In this document: positions 22,811 through 32,938 of the stretch, piece after piece
Position numbering within the stretch: the first letter of the stretch is position 1
How the letters are laid out: each line of letters begins with the position of its first letter
Source: a bacterium
GTDB taxonomy: Bacteria > Electryoneota > JAOADG01
Reading direction: 5' to 3'
Length of the DNA: 64,000 nucleotides
Assembly: GCA_963681965.1 (NCBI GenBank)
Contig: OY820579.1
Coordinates: forward strand, 288,001 to 352,000
The notes under the pieces: generated by a model
Databases searched by the model: none
The model's input: only the letters and a program-made list of their open reading frames with translations
What the model was told of the DNA's origin: nothing
Translations under genes and position numbers: made by a program

Positions 22811-24397
22811 TCAGTCGCCGCCGCCACCGCTAATGGTGAATTGCGGCAATTGCTTGAGCTTGAAAACAGTGTCGATAATAGTGCCATCGACCCATTTCAC
22901 GACACCGATCGGCTGATCGGTGAAATCCGGTTTCTTGGGTACACCACCGCACATCTTGTCGATTTCCTGTTTGATGTCAGCCAGCGGTCGAATCGGGAGT
23001 CCCGATTTCCGGGTCGCTTCGATCAAATCCTTGCGGAGGGGATTGATTGCGATCCCGCGCTCGGTGACGATTACGTCGATCAATTCGCCCGGTCCGACCA
23101 GCGTGGTCACGCGATCGACAATCACCGGAATGCGGTCGCGCATCGCGGGAATCGGGAGGATTGTACACTTCGAGAAGAGGCAATTCTGCCAGCCGCCAAT
23201 CCCATGCAGCAGCAAACCATCGCTGTGCGAGACGACATTGGCGTTGAAATCGAGATCGACTTCGGTCGCGCCGAGCACTACTGCATCGATCAGCGAGGCG
23301 AAATTCCCTTTGCCATGCCAGTTATAGCTAGTGAAGGGGGAAGTATTGACATGACGCGGATTCTCGCGCATCGACCGAACACCGTCCAAATCGAACGTCT
23401 GACCATCGAGGATATATTCGGTCAACCCCTCTTCCAGCATCTCGACGAGGTACTTGTTCGAACCGCCGCGAACGAAACGCGCCTTCACCCCTTTGCGCTT
23501 CATGATCTCCTTGAGGTAAATCGCGAAGGCGAGGGACGTGCCACCGGCACCGGCTTGGAACGAGAAACCGTCGCGCACGATTCCCGCAGCGTCGCAGAAT
23601 TTCGCCGTCAATTCGGCGATATAGAGCCGGTCGGGCGATTTCGTGAGTTGGGTTGTACCGCTGACAATCTTGGAGGGATCGCCGATCTTGTCGAGGACGA
23701 CGACGCAATCGACATTCTGACCTTGGATTTGCCACGGGATGCAGGGGAATGGCACCAGATTGTCGGTAACGACGATAACGTGATCGGCATATTCGGAGTC
23801 GACGAGTCCAAATCCGAGCAGACCGCATGCGGACGGACCGCGATCGCCGGTGGCATTACCGAGCGAGTCGGCAGTGGGGGCAGCGACGATGGCGATATCG
23901 ATATGTACTTCGCCATCCTGTACCGCCTGCCAGCGTCCACCATGACTGCGGAGCACCGCCATGCCGGGGAGCATCTTCCCTTCACTGACGTAGCGTCCGA
24001 GTGGACCGTTGAGCGACCCTTCGATATGATGGATCATACCCGATTCGAGGTGCTTGATCAGCGGTTCGTGGCACGGGAATGCGGCACTGGGGAACCAGCG
24101 CAACCCTTTCACGCCAAGTTCGGCACACGCTTCAAAGACCCGGTTCATCACCAAGTCGCCGTTGCGGAAATGGTGGTGCGAGGAAATCGTCATACCGTCG
24201 CGCAAGCCGCATTTTTCCAGCGCTTCGCGCAGCGAGCCGACGACTTTATTGCCGTCGAGCGGATATTGGGCACACGACCGGATCGGCGGTGCCGCTTTGT
24301 GTCCGGTCGGGATATACTTTCCGACCCCTTGATACGGGATCGACTCGACCCCATTCACGACTTCCGGAACGGGGCGATTGGCAGCATTTGTTTTCAT
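22811..24397 (-). CDS. citF: Citrate (or citramalate) lyase alpha subunit / acyl-ACP transferase
   Basis: ISSHHHFRNGD, LRSHGGR, FQAGAGG and VIVTERGIAINP motifs; start taken at MKTNAANR. Confidence 0.9.
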   Translation of the reverse strand: MKTNAANRPVPEVVNGVESIPYQGVGKYIPTGHKAAPPIRSCAQYPLDGNKVVGSLREALEKCGLRDGMTISSHHHFRNGDLVMNRVFEACAELGVKGLRWFPSAAFPCHEPLIKHLESGMIHHIEGSLNGPLGRYVSEGKMLPGMAVLRSHGGRWQAVQDGEVHIDIAIVAAPTADSLGNATGDRGPSACGLLGFGLVDSEYADHVIVVTDNLVPFPCIPWQIQGQNVDCVVVLDKIGDPSKIVSGTTQLTKSPDRLYIAELTAKFCDAAGIVRDGFSFQAGAGGTSLAFAIYLKEIMKRKGVKARFVRGGSNKYLVEMLEEGLTEYILDGQTFDLDGVRSMRENPRHVNTSPFTSYNWHGKGNFASLIDAVVLGATEVDLDFNANVVSHSDGLLLHGIGGWQNCLFSKCTILPIPAMRDRIPVIVDRVTTLVGPGELIDVIVTERGIAINPLRKDLIEATRKSGLPIRPLADIKQEIDKMCGGVPKKPDFTDQPIGVVKWVDGTIIDTVFKLKQLPQFTISGGGGD

Positions 24398-24571
24398 GGG
24401 TTGTTCACTCGTGTGTGAATTCAGTTGAAACAATAAGGTAATAAGGATTTGAGGCGAATGCATGACATCAGCGAAAAGCGTTATCCGTCGTGGATTTGCG
24501 AAACCAAGCAGGTTTCAGGGTATTCATCCGCAATGGCGACCCACATTCGTCTTGATCTTGTATCTTGATTG

Positions 24572-26508: not shown

Positions 26509-26565
26509 TATCGTTCACTACGGCAATCATTCCGATTGCACCACACCACTTCGACTAAAACGCAC

Positions 26566-26588
26566 ACGGCACGACTTTCGTCGTGCCG
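26566..26588. terminator. Hairpin between convergent genes
   Basis: CGGCACGAC-TTTC-GTCGTGCCG. Confidence 0.55.
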
Positions 26589-26618
26589 CGGTCGTAATAA
26601 ACAAAATACAATGAAACG

Positions 26619-28817
26619 TTACTTCACCAGCACCAGCTTGCGAACGGCACTGTACCGGCTAGCCTCGAATTTGAGGAAGTAAATACCGGTTGCCAGTTTG
26701 TCCGCGCGGATGAGCTGTGAATGCGTGCCCGCATTGACTTTACCGCTGAACAACGTTTCCACTTCACGCCCGGTTACATCAAACAGTCGCATCGTGATAT
26801 TCATCGATGTCGGCACTGTGAAGTTCACAGTCGTGGAGGGGTTGAACGGATTCGGATATGCTTCACTGACCGTAATCGCACTCGGCATTTCGATCGGCTC
26901 GCCAGCGGATTGGGTACCGTTGCCGACGCGCAATGCAACCGGAATGGTTACCGGTGCCGGGATATTCCCGCGGAACTGGATCGTTCCAGTCAGCGAGGAG
27001 TCGGTGTGGATATTATACGAATTCGCATTGATACCGATCGTACGTTGTGCTCCGGCACCCAACACAAACGAAACCGGCGACGCATTGCCCCAACTGTACA
27101 ACGGGGACAAATTCAACGTGCGACTCGCTGGAACCGCGGTATTGTATGCAATCTGAGTGAATTCGGTGGCACTCGACTGAATACCGATGGTGGCACTGCT
27201 CAAATTACCAGTCATATTCCGATAGACAAATTTGATCGTTCCGTCATTGGCATTCAAGATAATTTCGAACGACATCGTCGAGGACGGATCGCCGGTGCGA
27301 TACACATCTTCCCACGCGAATACTGCAATCCCACGTTCCAAATCGGTCAGGTAATACGCTTGTCCATCCGGAACCGTAAGATCATCCCAGAACGGTGCGA
27401 GCATGGTCGTCGCCACATTCGTCGGGAATTCGGTATTCGTCGTACTTGTCGTCGTACGAATCGAATTGAAAGTGATGAATCCACTCGAGGACATAATAAA
27501 CTGTGGATAATAATACCCGAACATCGGGAATTGAATATCCATCGGGTACGGACCTACCGCCGTATTTCGACCAACCGGACCGAGTTGCGAGTTGCCGGTA
27601 TCGGCAACAAACCATTCGGTTCCAGAGGTTGAATATTGGTATTCGTTTCGACCCAAAACCGCCGAAACAGTACCGATAAACCGATCGGTTCCGGAATTGC
27701 GGATCGTGATACTGGCATTGTCCTGCGCCAACGTATCCATCGTGAACGATAGACTGTCGGGACTTAGCGTAATAGAAGTGATTCCTACTACCTGGAAATT
27801 CTTGGGCGAGATTTCGACATGATTCCCTTCGACAATCTTAATTCGGCATGCCGTTGCAGTCGGACCCGGTACCGTCCAAGTGTAACTTCCGGTATTCGGT
27901 GCTGATGTCGTAATTGTGTCCCAAGTGCCAGTCGGATAGTTCCGATTGTAGAGCAGCGTCAAGTTGCCGGAGAACACCAAGGGTTCCCACATGATGTGAG
28001 TGGTGTCGCCGACAAAGAACAACTCGTCGCCTACTGGCGCCGTGACGTTGCAAGTGGTTTTGTACGCCGATTGGTATACTTCACGGGCAGAACCAGACGA
28101 AGTCTCATTCTGAACCCACACGATAGCAGCACAGCTATCCGCAGTGAATGCCGTCGCGCCAGTCGATCTCACCGGAAATTGACCGGTAAACGTCAACGTG
28201 TCGGATGTTCGACCGGAATGTGTAAAGCTGTAACCCGCAGAGGTACTTCCGGCAAAACCATCGAATGGCCAATAAAACGTGGTCATTCCATTTCGGGTCG
28301 CCGTTGCCAGTCGCTTGAATGTTGTGACAATACCGATGCGAAGTTTTACGTTGTTGAATGCACTGTCGGCAACCGCTTTCACAATCACGTTGAGGGTATC
28401 GCGATTGGCACTGGGACTGTTGATCACCTTCAGCCAAATATGCGAAGCCACTCGTCCACGATTGGTAATAGCGGTTAACATTGCAGCGGCATTCCCTGCA
28501 CTCGACGACGCTCCGTCGAGATATCCCGCCGGAATTGAATTTACACCATATGCAGTACGTCGCGCTTCGTTATCGGTCGGATTTGCCAAATACCAGATAT
28601 CGTAATTGGCTGTCGGCCAATTCTGGTGGTAAAAAACTGGTGTTACTACGTCTCTTCCTTGCCCCGCAAGAAATGGATCGAGCCACGCGTGCTCGGTCGC
28701 ACAGCCGGGTCAAGACGTGCTGGTAAACCCTTCGAACAAGACCGTACGCGGATAACTGAAAGCAGTTACCGAGCAGGCGAGTACGAAGAGCGCGGAAAAT
28801 AAACGCAATTTCTTCAT
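26619..28817 (-). CDS. Secreted Omp28/thioredoxin-like putative selenoprotein (U36xxC39) with Ig-like, nidogen-like and C-terminal sorting domains, 732 aa
   Basis: GGGAG RBS and ATG at 28817, then signal peptide and RTVLFEGFTSTS-[TGA 28712-28710]-PGC. The frame stays open into the tracked ORF 26619..28589. The C-terminus reads AYPNPFNPSTT...KLVLVK. Confidence 0.85.
28676..28698 (-). promoter_or_regulatory. Candidate bacterial SECIS hairpin
   Basis: GA-C-CGAGC-ACGCGUG-GCUCG-A-UC stem-loop starting 12 nt after the UGA; loop about 20 nt downstream with an early G. Confidence 0.55.
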
Positions 28818-28973
28818 CGATACTCCCATTCTCAAAGAATCAAACACTCTTCGCCAAACATCGGTTTAGCTACTCTATAATAATCAATTCCAGTACATTC
28901 CAAAAACAATCTCTTTGCTATTTTAATTTTTTCCAATGTTGTCTAAAAAAGTGTCAGTCGATCGCATGAGAGT

Positions 28974-29030: not shown

Positions 29031-29639
29031 TTAGTGGCAACCAGCGAATCGCTTACTGACATCTGCCCAATTCAACAAATTCCACCAAGTTTCGACAAAA
29101 GCGGCTCGTTTGTTCTGGAATTTCAAATAATAAGCGTGTTCCCAGACATCCAGAACAAGCAACGGGGTAACACCCCAGACCGTTAGATCCTGATGCTTTT
29201 CCGATTGCAGAATTTCCAGTTTCTTGCCACGCGGTTCCCACGCTAAAATTGCCCAACCGCTACCCTCAACGGCAACAGCGGCTGCGGAAAACTGCTTCTT
29301 GAACGTTTCGAAACTACCGAAATCGCGATTGATTTGCTCGGAAATCGGACCAGTCGGCAATCCACCAGCATTGGGTGCCATATTTTCCCAATACATCTGA
29401 TGCATGAAGTGTCCGGAACCGTGAAATGCTACTTCTCGCGACCAATGCTTCACCAACGAAAAGTCGCCGGCTTCGCGGGCAGCGGCAAGTTTCGCTTCGG
29501 CATTGTTCAGTCCGTCGACATAGGCTTTGTGATGCATATCGTGATGTAAACGAACAGTTTGTTCGTCCATGTGTGGTTCTAACGCGTTGTAAGCATACGG
29601 TAATGGCGGTAATTCGTACGGCATTTTGTTACTCCTCAA
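29031..29639 (-). CDS. sod: Fe/Mn superoxide dismutase (likely start MPYELPPL)
   Basis: LPPLPYAYNALEPH, HHKAYV, GSGWA and DVWEHAYY motifs. Confidence 0.95.
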   Translation of the reverse strand: MRSNKMPYELPPLPYAYNALEPHMDEQTVRLHHDMHHKAYVDGLNNAEAKLAAAREAGDFSLVKHWSREVAFHGSGHFMHQMYWENMAPNAGGLPTGPISEQINRDFGSFETFKKQFSAAAVAVEGSGWAILAWEPRGKKLEILQSEKHQDLTVWGVTPLLVLDVWEHAYYLKFQNKRAAFVETWWNLLNWADVSKRFAGCH

Positions 29640-29819: not shown

Positions 29820-30710
29820 TTACTCATGTTCCGGACGGGTTTTCCAGCGGCGATGTAACCACAACCATTGCTCGGGATATTCCCGAACGGTTCGTTCCAA
29901 GCGAGCGGTAATCCGTTTCATCCCCTCTTCGACAGCGGCATCGTGATCGGCAGGTAGATCGGACAAGTCCATCCGTTCATAGGTTACTCTAAATTTTCGA
30001 TTTCCGAGCCGGATCCCTTCGGTAAAGAAAACCGGTGCCCCGGTACGTAACGCAAACACCATTGCACCTCGAGGTGTCGAAGCGAGTCGCCCGAAAAACG
30101 GCACAAATACCCCTTCCCGGTGCCCATCTTGATCGCAGAGGAGCGCAATCAGTCTACCGCTTCGAAGTGCGCGGAGCGTGCCTTTGGCAGCATTGTCGTT
30201 GCGATTCACAATCTCGATGCCGCATCCTTGGCGAAGCGAGTCCATTTCAGCTTCGATCAATCGGTTGGCTTGCGAGGCAACGATGTAGGTGAGCGGGATA
30301 CCGCTTAACGAGGTTCCCGCTCCCATCCATTCCCAATTACCGAGATGCCCGGAAACACCGATTGCCCCTTTCCCTTCGGCAAGTCCGGCACGCAATTCTT
30401 CCAAACCGCGGAACTCCATCTGACTGGTAATATTTTCTGAAGTCAGCAACGGGAGCCGAGCAAATTCCGCGAGTGTTCTTCCAAACGAGCGGTACATTTC
30501 ATTGGCGATTTGGTGGCACTCGGATTCGGTTTTTTCGGGAAATGCCAGCATCAATTGTTCGATCGCCACCCGCTTCCGAATACCAATCAAAGCAATCAAT
30601 GAACCAATTCCCGCACCGATCGCGCGCGAAGTTTGCAACGGCGTTATGCGAAAGATCGATTCGATGCCACGAATTGCCCACAGCTCCAATTTTGCCCGAA
30701 AAGAATGCAC
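29820..30710 (-). CDS. Lipid A lauroyl / lysophospholipid acyltransferase (LpxL/HtrB family)
   Basis: HLGNWE, DQD..REGVFVPFFG and PEQWLWLHRRWK motifs. Confidence 0.9.
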   Translation of the reverse strand: MHSFRAKLELWAIRGIESIFRITPLQTSRAIGAGIGSLIALIGIRKRVAIEQLMLAFPEKTESECHQIANEMYRSFGRTLAEFARLPLLTSENITSQMEFRGLEELRAGLAEGKGAIGVSGHLGNWEWMGAGTSLSGIPLTYIVASQANRLIEAEMDSLRQGCGIEIVNRNDNAAKGTLRALRSGRLIALLCDQDGHREGVFVPFFGRLASTPRGAMVFALRTGAPVFFTEGIRLGNRKFRVTYERMDLSDLPADHDAAVEEGMKRITARLERTVREYPEQWLWLHRRWKTRPEHE

Positions 30711-32938
30711 TACTTCTCCGTCAAGGTGTATACTTTATCCCAATTATCCGGTGGTGGATCGCGTAAGTACCCTAGCGATCGTTCGTAAAATGTCTTTGCC
30801 GGACCATCGTTGGGATCCAATGCCAATACTCGTTTGAATAAGGTACAAGAGGTTTCGAATTCCCCTTCGTCGTACTTTTGTCGTGCTTCACGGAAAGTCG
30901 CGAGCAGCGTCGCTAGTTTCGGAGGCAGCGATCCGTTGTTTTCCGCAACGACTTCATAGATCTCGACGACCTGGGTTTTTCCAATTACCCGGATGCGGTC
31001 GAGAAACCTCGTCACAAAAGCGTCGCCAAGTTCACTGAGGGTATCGGCGCTACAGATAATAGTGGTTTCGTAAATCTTATTGACGCTTTCAAGTCGAGAT
31101 CCAAGATTGACAGCATCACCCATTACGGTATAATCGAAAACATCTTCGGAGCCCATGTTTCCGACAATCATGTCACCGGTATTGATCCCGACCCGGGAAT
31201 ACAATTTCGGGCGCGACTCATTTGCCCATTTAGTACGAAGTTCAGCTAACTTTCGCTGCATTCTCAACGCAGAGCGGCATGCTCGGATGGCGTGATCCGG
31301 ATAGTGAATTGGCGCGCCGAATTCAGCCATAATCAAGTCGCCTTCGTACTTATCAATAATCCCTTCTTCCGCAAGAATCTCCCGCGTCATCGCCGTTAAA
31401 TATTCGTTCAATAAACTGACCAGAGCTTCCGGCGACATCCGTTCCGAAATTGAGGTAAAACCGGCAACATCGGTAAAGAGTACCGTAAGTCGACGACGTT
31501 CCCCACCAAGGCGTAACATCTCCGGTTTGTCGAGGAGTTCACCAACAACCTTTTTGGGAACGTAGCGACCGAACATTCCGCGGATTTTCGCTTTCTCTTT
31601 CTGTTCCCGCAACACTCGTCGTAATACCGTCAGAATAAACACCAAGCTGATCGACGACATCGGCGCTATCGATTGTGTCATGTAATTGCCATAGATGAAC
31701 ACAAACGCGGATCCAAAGAACACCAGTAAAATCGACGCTACTGTGATGATCACACCTACCCAGACACTGCGGTGGTGTGCTACCCACCAGACTGGAATAC
31801 AAAGCAGAAGCCAGATGAAGAATTGAATCCAAAATGAGATTCTGATCAAGAAGCTATTGGAAAGAAGTGTCCAGAGCGCATGTGCGTGAATCTCGACCCC
31901 GGGCATTTTAGCTGGTGAGGGGTCGTACAAATCGAATGGTGTCGAGCGAACGTCCTGCATCGCCGGCATCGTATTACCGACAAATACGATTTTATCTTTA
32001 AACGGATTATCTTTCGCCAATGCCATCAATAGCGAATCTGAGCCGGGTGGCGGCGGCGAAAGGGTCAACTCCATCCAGTCGGTATCGTACCCCTCGGCAA
32101 GATCGAATGAGGCATCGTCCAGCACTTGTGCCAATTTGTAATATGGGAATGCGTGTTGCTTTCCCGCAGGACCGGCATAATTGATCCACATCCGCAACTG
32201 ACCGTATGTAGGAACAGACAGGTTACCAAATTGCGCCAATTCCGGCGAATAGCGAATTTGATCGGCGCGAATCGAATCGCCCCGATACATTTCTAAGGCT
32301 TTCAATCCCAACGATAAATACAATTTTCCGTTCGCATCGATACCCAGAAGATAGTGATGGACGACTTTATCGATATCTTCCGGAACATTGACATTTGCCC
32401 ATGGCGCACCGGTTTTTACGAAATTCGGATCCGGAGGCGATTCGACATACATCTCCTCAGCTAGATTTCGGTTTCGTTCGACCATCAACTCGCCAGCGAG
32501 CAGGACATTTCCCGCGTGCTTGATTGCATCGGCAAACGCAGCATCACCCGCACTATCGGCGGGGGTACCGAACTGAATATCGAATACGATCAGTTTTGCA
32601 CCAGCGGCATGTAAGTTGTTGACCAAATGCGCCCAGATCGATCGCGAATAAGGCCAACGCAGTCGGAGTGCCAGTTCCGATTCATCGTCGGCTTCGACGA
32701 TTACAATCGGGGCTGATTGAGGTTTTGGTGGATTATATCGTTGTCGCCAGCGAAACTTGGTGTCGAGTAATTTGCGTTCGCCAATATCGTTGAGTGTCAG
32801 CGCGGGCAGGATCGTACTAATATTGGAGAGCAATATTCCAATAAACAGAGCAAGAAAAACGATCCAGACCCCGGACCAGCGACCGAATATGGTAGTAATT
32901 TTCATGTGCTCTCCGTCGAACAAACGCGGGGCTTCCAA
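30710..32938 (-). CDS. CHASE2-domain class III adenylate/guanylate cyclase
   Basis: RWPYSR, MPGVEIHAH, three TM helices, LFTDVAGFTS, DKYEGD, YTVMGDAVNLGSRLE. Confidence 0.92.
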   Translation of the reverse strand: MEAPRLFDGEHMKITTIFGRWSGVWIVFLALFIGILLSNISTILPALTLNDIGERKLLDTKFRWRQRYNPPKPQSAPIVIVEADDESELALRLRWPYSRSIWAHLVNNLHAAGAKLIVFDIQFGTPADSAGDAAFADAIKHAGNVLLAGELMVERNRNLAEEMYVESPPDPNFVKTGAPWANVNVPEDIDKVVHHYLLGIDANGKLYLSLGLKALEMYRGDSIRADQIRYSPELAQFGNLSVPTYGQLRMWINYAGPAGKQHAFPYYKLAQVLDDASFDLAEGYDTDWMELTLSPPPPGSDSLLMALAKDNPFKDKIVFVGNTMPAMQDVRSTPFDLYDPSPAKMPGVEIHAHALWTLLSNSFLIRISFWIQFFIWLLLCIPVWWVAHHRSVWVGVIITVASILLVFFGSAFVFIYGNYMTQSIAPMSSISLVFILTVLRRVLREQKEKAKIRGMFGRYVPKKVVGELLDKPEMLRLGGERRRLTVLFTDVAGFTSISERMSPEALVSLLNEYLTAMTREILAEEGIIDKYEGDLIMAEFGAPIHYPDHAIRACRSALRMQRKLAELRTKWANESRPKLYSRVGINTGDMIVGNMGSEDVFDYTVMGDAVNLGSRLESVNKIYETTIICSADTLSELGDAFVTRFLDRIRVIGKTQVVEIYEVVAENNGSLPPKLATLLATFREARQKYDEGEFETSCTLFKRVLALDPNDGPAKTFYERSLGYLRDPPPDNWDKVYTLTEK

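Follow-up and report, generated by a model that had tools for sequence, protein, structure and literature searches.

Does the TGA codon that interrupts a long reading frame close to its start terminate translation, or is it decoded as selenocysteine (Sec), giving rise to a secreted selenoprotein that gene annotation overlooks? This question is raised by a gene on the minus strand (26619..28817) of a 64,000-nucleotide stretch of contig OY820579.1 (positions 288,001 to 352,000; assembly GCA_963681965.1) from a bacterium of the Electryoneota, the whole of which is referred to as the window. The original prediction, made from the letters of the window alone, had proposed an exported thioredoxin-like selenoenzyme at this locus. 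From the analyses described here we consider it highly probable that the gene encodes a selenoprotein of 732 amino acids, which carries Sec at codon 36 inserted by the organism's own Sec system, which is exported by a secretion system of type IX (T9SS), and whose N-terminal module of the HBP35/Omp28 type likely acts in thiol/selenol-disulfide exchange. The comparative sequence data make it very likely that the TGA at codon 36 encodes selenocysteine.

The reading frame and its truncated annotation

On the minus strand the frame is open from an ATG at 28817 to a TAA stop codon at 26619-26621, and its sole interruption is the TGA at 28710-28712. Reading this TGA as Sec (U) results in a coding sequence of 732 amino acids plus stop, which starts with MKKLRLFSALFVLACSVTAFS / YPRTVLFEGFTSTS-U-PGC, has the TGA at codon 36 and carries a YPNPFNP tail; among the homologues, coding conservation is found on both flanks of the TGA. 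A ribosome-binding site GGGAG (28823..28827, minus strand) can be read directly 5 nucleotides ahead of the ATG. The first 21 residues (MKKLRLFSALFVLACSVTAFS; 28755..28817, minus strand) show on inspection of the translation the n-h-c layout and the AFS/Y boundary of a signal peptide, with a likely cleavage at AFS/YP, and the conserved part of the homologues starts at (A)YPRTVL. The Sec36 codon occupies the first position of a UxxC motif (U-P-G-C) and falls, in the column of the homologues, on Cys48 of HBP35. The start behind GGGAG, the signal peptide, the lone TGA, the length and the tail had all been claimed in the original prediction, and direct reading of the translated frame bears them out, for the signal peptide by its layout.

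The automated views of the locus begin later. In the mechanical list of open reading frames (ORFs) the same frame begins only at TTG 28589 (26619..28589, 656 amino acids), and a public gene call is a 620-residue protein whose first residue is residue 113 of the full frame, which agrees with the earlier claim that automated annotation would truncate the gene. When residues 1-260 were used in a word-indexed protein search, just two proteins came up, each a truncated call belonging either to the genome of the window or to one nearly identical with it. An exhaustive HMMER protein search found 1388 proteins at E <= 0.001, 198 of these at E <= 1e-10, and many of the matches or database representatives begin at query residue 60-66, 113 or later. 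These late starts seem to fit gene calls that were begun after an in-frame TGA, and truncated annotation of Sec forms seems to be widespread.

Two simpler explanations for the TGA were rejected. A global recoding of TGA is contradicted by the window itself, in which TGA is the ordinary stop codon of 13 of the 38 long ORFs listed, the full-length CitF and MutL included, as had been noted before. Also a sequencing error was dismissed, as the TGA column recurs in paralogues and relatives, and the window segment 28400-28900 is identical, TGA included, in contigs of four runs from two studies, although the assembly may itself derive from one of these runs.

Alternation of selenocysteine and cysteine among the homologues

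The original prediction had proposed to look for Cys or TGA at position 36 of homologues and to count paralogues with the same TGA. A tblastn search with the first 260 residues against the own genome, which is a single contig of 4.24 Mb, revealed three paralogues, all with frames of approximately 700 amino acids. Two of the three carry TGA at the identical column (…YTNYS-TGA-SFC… and …YTNYS-TGA-PYC…), and the third has Ser in this position (…TSNTS-PEC…). This fourth copy of the genome (G000:C1:201708-203940, plus strand) uses AGC to encode an SxxC motif and is devoid of the downstream hairpins described below; it may represent a redox-dead or single-cysteine variant. One more Ser form is found in L156.

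The search was extended to 41 genomes, i.e., that of the window and 40 relatives; 39 of the 41 yielded a total of 84 matches. In 34 of these 84 matches, distributed over 16 genomes, a single TGA is the only stop codon, and as a row count this gives an unbiased frequency of TGA among the homologous copies. The column alignment comprises 73 stretches (70 loci and 3 from the own genome), containing all 34 TGA rows and 39 of the 50 non-TGA rows; L073, L085 and L090 do not align over the Sec column, leaving 70 copies to be counted. In these, the Sec column is occupied by TGA in 33 copies, by Cys in 36 copies (25 TGC, 11 TGT) and by Ser in one, embedded throughout in the context …(F/Y)T-x-x-x-[U/C]-x-x-C…. 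Judged by the sequences, this alternation is that of a classical Sec/Cys pair.

For a view beyond these genomes, a pattern search started from the single protein yielded 19 matches, none of which is a relative. A wider search of genome records starting from an 11-row alignment returned 576 stretches, 476 of them relatives, from which the 80 best were retained. The 82 copies obtained from this wider search comprise 79 Cys, 2 TGA and 1 Ser forms, a split that says nothing about the frequency of Sec outside the phylum because one of the three search patterns demanded Cys. The relatives are found in records titled as 'bacterium' metagenome-assembled genomes, Candidatus Electryonea and Candidatus Hatepunaea, the latter two belonging to Candidatus Electryoneota of the FCB group according to the NCBI taxonomy, and furthermore in records titled Calditrichaeota, Ignavibacteria, Chlorobiota, Kapabacteria and Bacteroidales, from which it follows that lineages with a T9SS commonly possess the N-terminal module.

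Several copies lie next to each other. On G001:C83 a Cys form (L078, 3817-4957) is followed by a TGA form (L055, 6292-7429), on G005:C14 both tandem copies (L067 and L068) are TGA forms, and on G015:C1 the copies L076 (TGA) and L090 are neighbours around 1176439-1180485. The frequent tandem arrangement and the mixture of Sec and Cys members suggest recent duplication accompanied by Sec/Cys switching.

Selenocysteine decoding machinery

All components expected for Sec decoding, for which a genome search had been proposed earlier, are encoded in the genome of the window, and all matches are above their cut-offs: selA (481.4 bits), selB (363.6 bits), selD (336.7 bits) and a tRNA-Sec with the anticodon TCA (63.8 bits). 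Together with the Sec/Cys column, the paralogues and the hairpins, these genes uphold the assignment of codon 36 to selenocysteine. Across the 41 genomes selA is above cut-off in 39, including 15 of the 16 genomes bearing TGA forms; in the sixteenth TGA-bearing genome selA is present as a fragment where a contig ends, and the lone genome without a real selA match (best E 2.2e-4) holds just a Cys copy. This co-occurrence is consistent with Sec and is non-discriminating, as 39 of the 41 genomes have selA.

Some further observations concern the machinery itself. The selD gene of the window's genome (L001, G000:C1:4175883-4179809) carries one in-frame TGA, and its SelD is probably a selenoprotein as well. 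In many relatives, among them G011, G025, G021, G029, G016, G037, G017, G012, G033, G007 and G006, selA is matched twice, at full length and above the cut-off in separate places, unlike the genome of the window with its single selA. One of the TGA paralogues (G000:C1:2411000-2413208, minus strand) lies approximately 1.5 kb downstream of the tRNA-Sec gene (G000:C1:2414712-2414803; the two loci are listed as L014 and L023) on the same strand, and just past the tRNA-Sec gene an ORF with a T9SS sorting tail is found (2414867-2415106).

RNA hairpins downstream of the TGA

Bacterial selenocysteine insertion sequence (SECIS) elements lie approximately 10 nucleotides after the UGA. At the level of the family a stem-loop is found near this distance in the Sec forms and not in the Cys forms. 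On average, positions +6 to +44 fold with -12.5 kcal/mol in the Sec forms (n = 33) vs. -7.65 kcal/mol in the Cys/Ser forms (n = 37; p 4.7e-6, Mann-Whitney), the mean z-scores against shuffles for the same positions being -2.0 and -0.08, respectively. Also for the positions +36 to +66 folding differs between Sec and Cys/Ser forms (p 0.003).

In the ungapped alignment, 28 of the 33 TGA sequences were sorted by eye into three subgroups, excluding L041, L044, L059, L063 and L065, which fit none of them, and consensus structures were computed with RNAalifold. Group C (n = 11) forms one hairpin of 8 base pairs starting 9 nucleotides past the TGA with a loop of the GGC/GUC type and shows compensatory changes in 6 of the 8 pairs. 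Group B (n = 9) has a hairpin at the same position and a second one further downstream. Group A (n = 8), to which the window copy and its two TGA paralogues belong, has two hairpins as in group B, and compensatory changes are present in 4 of 11 pairs, all of them in hairpin 2. In the subgroup structures 90.9-93.2% of the cells are paired vs. 23-61% with slid partners, and the covariation score is reached by 0 of 500 shuffles, figures that are inflated since the alignments used for counting had also supplied the structures, and since the sequences share ancestry.

Hairpin 1 of the window copy (28676..28698, minus strand) is SECIS-like, starts 11 nucleotides past the TGA and consists of 5 base pairs (CGAGC/GCUCG) around the 7-nucleotide loop ACGCGUG, with two further pairs past a C-A mismatch. 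Hairpin 2 (28655..28673, minus strand) is formed by 8 base pairs, UUUCUUGC/GCAAGGAA around GGG, and covers the codons for F-L-A-G-Q-G. The residues encoded over hairpin 2 differ between copies (LAGQG, LSGTG, LTSWG) while the pairing is retained, which points to selection acting on the RNA. Located approximately 37-58 nucleotides after the Sec codon, hairpin 2 is kept with compensatory changes in two of the three TGA subgroups and is absent from the third; its carriers include L022, L023, L025, L026, L033, L036 and L038. A hairpin at the position of hairpin 2 is also present in L078, the Cys-form tandem neighbor mentioned above.

Domain architecture and sorting tail

The N-terminal module consists of two parts. 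A thioredoxin-like subdomain (residues 22-122; 28452..28754, minus strand) is defined by alignment, profile and structural model; its UxxC motif lies at the N-terminal end of helix 1, and strand 3 is preceded by an invariant Pro96. It is followed by an Omp28-like beta-sandwich subdomain (residues 127-254; 28056..28439, minus strand), assigned by its similarity to HBP35 (PDB 5y1a, TMq 0.80) and to the Omp28 domain 2r2c (TMt 0.72). The alignment of 57 sequences of this module contains five invariant columns, namely the U/C column, the second Cys, a Tyr, a Pro and a Gly (C15, C18 and P75 being among them). Searched against the PDB, the profile of the module finds HBP35 as best match (E 4.9e-7), in an alignment that pairs the U column with Cys48 and C39 with Cys51, and also a thioredoxin of the MJ0307 type (1fo5, E 2.6e-6). 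The Pfam family Omp28 (PF11551) matches 53 of the 57 family members at E <= 0.1 (best 6e-15), and DUF1223 matches 17 of them. The AlphaFold model of the module (pLDDT 91.7, pTM 0.90) shows a beta-alpha-beta unit, helices and a beta-beta-alpha unit followed by the beta-sandwich, with the UxxC at the start of helix 1. A Foldseek search with this model ranks HBP35 5y1a first (E 3.6e-11, the TMq being that given above) and the Omp28 domain 2r2c second, in line with the Omp28/thioredoxin-like UxxC domain proposed originally.

The middle region (residues 255-653; 26859..28055, minus strand) is modeled as beta-sandwich (Ig-like) domains arranged around a NIDO-like stretch (residues 441-495; 27333-27497). 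The original prediction of Ig-like and nidogen-like domains is thus upheld in part. For the Ig-like domains, an AlphaFold 2 model built from six sequences contains arrays of beta-sandwiches, at medium confidence (pLDDT 72), and a Foldseek search with this region returned generic multi-Ig arrays alone (TM 0.1-0.2) and no specific fold. For the nidogen-like part, the domain NIDO (PF06119) is above its cut-off of 25 bits in the paralogue at 1.59 Mb (28.4 bits), whereas the window copy stays below it (19.4 bits, E 0.0012, covering profile positions 4-56 of 186).

The tail (residues 654-729; 26631..26858, minus strand) is a T9SS type A C-terminal sorting domain, which is found by PF18962 (41.4 bits, cut-off 27) and by TIGR04183 (39.7 bits, cut-off 23) and constitutes the sole confident Pfam/NCBIfam placement in the protein. 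The genome encodes SprA (approximately 700 bits summed), the sortase PorU (619.5 bits) and, next to it, a PorV-like protein, and sorting-domain tails are present on many of its other ORFs. The claim that the protein is exported by way of its C-terminal sorting tail is supported by these matches, by which export is predicted from sequence.

Comparison with known systems

The closest characterized relative in architecture is HBP35 of Porphyromonas gingivalis (PDB 5y1a), a hemin-binding protein of 35 kDa. It has a signal peptide, a thioredoxin-like domain, an Omp28-type beta-sandwich and a T9SS C-terminal domain, and the window protein shows the same three domains behind a predicted signal peptide. 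U36 and C39 of the window protein align with C48 and C51 of HBP35, at an overall sequence identity of approximately 11%. HBP35 has CxxC where the window protein has Sec at the first position, and with its 344 amino acids it lacks the middle region of approximately 400 amino acids. According to Shoji et al. (2010), insulin is reduced faster by recombinant HBP35 than by E. coli thioredoxin and is not reduced by the C48S/C51S double mutant; HBP35 binds hemin, and the HBP35 mutant grows poorly without hemin (PMC2907840).

An Omp28-type UxxC selenoprotein is already known since 2008. It was described as GOS_C, a family of unknown function with a thioredoxin-like fold and UxxC, for which 74 Sec and 312 Cys sequences were counted (Zhang and Gladyshev, 2008, PMC2398784); its UxxC motif is also tabulated in a 2026 review (PMC13188914). 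The corresponding NCBIfam model NF045500 bears the name 'Omp28-related selenoprotein'. Like GOS_C/NF045500, as far as the published description goes, the window protein is a predicted bacterial selenoprotein with UxxC in a thioredoxin-like fold and many Cys homologues. NF045500 (377 positions) matches the N-domains of 54 of the 57 family members at E <= 0.1 (best E 7.4e-17). The window protein reaches 15.2 bits (18.6 bits for the domain alone), which is far under the cut-off of 200, and therefore belongs to a separate subfamily rather than being a member of NF045500. The T9SS tail and the long middle region would set it apart from GOS_C as described.

With the Omp28 family (PF11551, NF033782, PDB 2r2c) the beta-sandwich subdomain is shared, and NF033782 matches 50 of the 57 family members at E <= 0.1, the window copy reaching 12.1 bits vs. 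a cut-off of 150. Omp28 proteins are lipoproteins of approximately 28 kDa without Sec, whereas the window protein is a predicted T9SS cargo with a sorting tail. Finally, the window protein resembles the UxxC selenoproteins of thioredoxin fold (Trx-like, DsbA-like and Prx-like; 1fo5) in having Sec at the start of helix 1, Cys homologues and a downstream SECIS hairpin. These are mostly small cytoplasmic or periplasmic proteins, whereas the window protein has 732 amino acids and several domains and is predicted to be directed to the surface via T9SS. UxxC Trx-like selenoprotein families are among those listed in the 2008 survey (PMC2398784). In the open-access literature searched, no paper was found that joins selenoproteins with T9SS, Omp28 or HBP35.

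Proposed mechanism and alternative explanations

According to the mechanism proposed, the ribosome would read the UGA at codon 36 as selenocysteine using SelA, SelB, SelD and tRNA-Sec of the genome, with decoding directed by the stem-loop from approximately 11 nucleotides past the UGA; a second, co-varying stem-loop approximately 37 nucleotides downstream is found in the subgroup of the window. The product would cross the inner membrane via the Sec translocon with cleavage of its signal peptide, and the C-terminal sorting domain would pass it on to the T9SS and thereby to the cell surface or the medium. There, U36-P-G-C39 would stand in for the CxxC without which P. gingivalis HBP35 has no disulfide-reductase activity. 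The U36/C39 selenylsulfide center would most likely perform thiol/selenol-disulfide exchange with a substrate at the surface or outside the cell, for which the middle region with its Ig-like and NIDO-like domains would provide spacer or binding parts. We infer the actual insertion of selenium because of the comparative evidence, which we regard as strong, export because a putative signal peptide, a sorting domain and the genes of the machinery are present, and redox activity because of the fold and the activity of HBP35; the nature of the substrate and the status of the protein as an enzyme are predicted in the same way.

Several points weigh against this proposal. The presence of selenium in the protein, its expression and its export are expected rather than directly observed; a look for RNA runs listed none, and the identical contigs of the four runs do not bear on transcription. 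Hairpin 1 of the window is the weakest of its subgroup, three of its four consensus-register pairs being broken, and it pairs only one base off the register of the closest relatives, with 5 and 2 base pairs. Shuffled sequences fold with a stability that the 81 nucleotides around the TGA do not significantly exceed (z -1.39), an Rfam scan of 28500-28900 at E <= 10 detected no SECIS family and only two chance matches of snoRNA type, and the inflation of the pairing and covariation figures has been mentioned. The window copy is under the Pfam thresholds for Omp28 (13 bits, cut-off 34.9) and Thioredoxin_2 (15.3 bits), and the PorV-like gene next to PorU reaches 209 bits with a cut-off of 250. Moreover, no redox partner is known for a surface UxxC, and since HBP35 binds hemin, redox chemistry is perhaps not the sole or main role.

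The TGA might alternatively be a true stop, the locus being a pseudogene or encoding an N-terminally truncated product that starts at TTG 28589 or at the start of the 620-residue call, with the upstream 35 codons non-coding. This is what mechanical ORF finding and a public gene call yield, and TGA is common as a stop in the window. However, the TGA column recurs in 33 aligned homologues of 16 genomes and in two paralogues of the window's own genome, the peptide preceding the TGA (predicted signal peptide and RTVLxExFT) is kept in Sec and Cys forms alike, and the TGA site is identical in the contigs of two studies. The truncated product would moreover lack the signal peptide required by a T9SS cargo and half of the thioredoxin fold, and we hold termination at this TGA to be very improbable. 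No more credible is a readthrough of the UGA in which a near-cognate or suppressor tRNA inserts Trp or Cys, resulting in a full-length protein without selenium. The modest hairpin 1 of the window could be taken to speak for it, but the genome has a complete Sec system, the column alternates solely with Cys (36 copies) or Ser (one copy) and never with Trp, a hairpin specific for TGA forms lies at the distance typical of bacterial SECIS elements, and other genes end at TGA, so that suppression is not general.

The main functional rival is a ligand-binding role, in which the protein would be a true selenoprotein belonging to the surface adhesins or uptake proteins, whose UxxC does not act as a disulfide oxidoreductase and whose module binds a ligand such as hemin, a metal or a metalloid. 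Such a role would be in line with HBP35, which binds hemin and is required for growth on limiting hemin (PMC2907840), with the remainder of the window protein, which consists of binding-type beta-sandwich and NIDO-like domains and contains no catalytic domain, and with the fact that no extracellular reductant is known. On the other hand, the UxxC is positioned at the N-terminus of helix 1 opposite the invariant Pro, the classical redox geometry of thioredoxins; the homologous cysteines are needed for the reductase activity of HBP35 (PMC2907840); and replacement of Cys by Sec is typical of redox-active positions, as is stated for GOS_C (PMC2398784). Taken together we judge a purely ligand-binding UxxC to be unlikely, yet clearly less so than termination or selenium-free readthrough, and prefer the exported selenoprotein acting in thiol/selenol-disulfide exchange.

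Genomic context

The gene upstream of the selenoprotein gene (29031-29639) encodes an Fe/Mn superoxide dismutase (sod). The position just downstream of sod, which had been pointed out originally, holds as an adjacency, whereas the two genes are parted by a hairpin resembling a terminator (29003-28978), after which comes a promoter-like site TTTAGA-16-TAAAAT (28920..28947, minus strand); the promoter-like site is a consensus match only, with two sites found vs. 3.5 expected in shuffles. A second computed terminator-like hairpin follows the stop codon of the selenoprotein gene (26565..26590, minus strand). Because of its own terminator-like hairpin and the separation from sod, the selenoprotein gene looks monocistronic. 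Further upstream a lipid A acyltransferase is encoded at 29820-30710, and two genes upstream (30710-32938, minus strand) a CHASE2 sensor domain is fused to an adenylate/guanylate cyclase domain. Elsewhere in the window, a 525-amino-acid ORF (22841-24418, plus strand) runs antisense to the gene of the citrate lyase alpha-subunit CitF (22811-24463, minus strand) and is probably a chance shadow ORF.

Implications for T9SS-bearing lineages

The window protein can be read as a T9SS-sorted, multidomain variant that goes beyond the Omp28-related selenoproteins catalogued so far. With public calls at this locus and for many relatives lacking the predicted signal peptide and the active site, a set of exported selenoproteins is hidden from annotation. 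In the papers that could be searched, no discussion of extracellular selenoproteins placed by the T9SS was found. A broader reading, which we put forward tentatively and consider possible though rather doubtful, is that the lineage as a whole has a set of T9SS-delivered surface selenoproteins forming an undescribed class of extracellular Sec-dependent redox proteins, with one to six copies per genome that switch between Sec, Cys and rarely Ser. Equally tentative is a two-hairpin Sec element in two of the subgroups, with hairpin 1 at the canonical distance and the loop of the co-varying hairpin 2 approximately 45 nucleotides from the UGA. Hairpin 2 may assist the bacterial SECIS as a novel accessory element or serve as an export-linked pause signal, and being conserved it is a candidate addition to the bacterial SECIS model. 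A UxxC center at the cell surface poses the questions of its reductant and its target. Moreover, the switching between Sec, Cys and Ser among paralogues of a single genome represents a natural experiment on the retention of selenocysteine.

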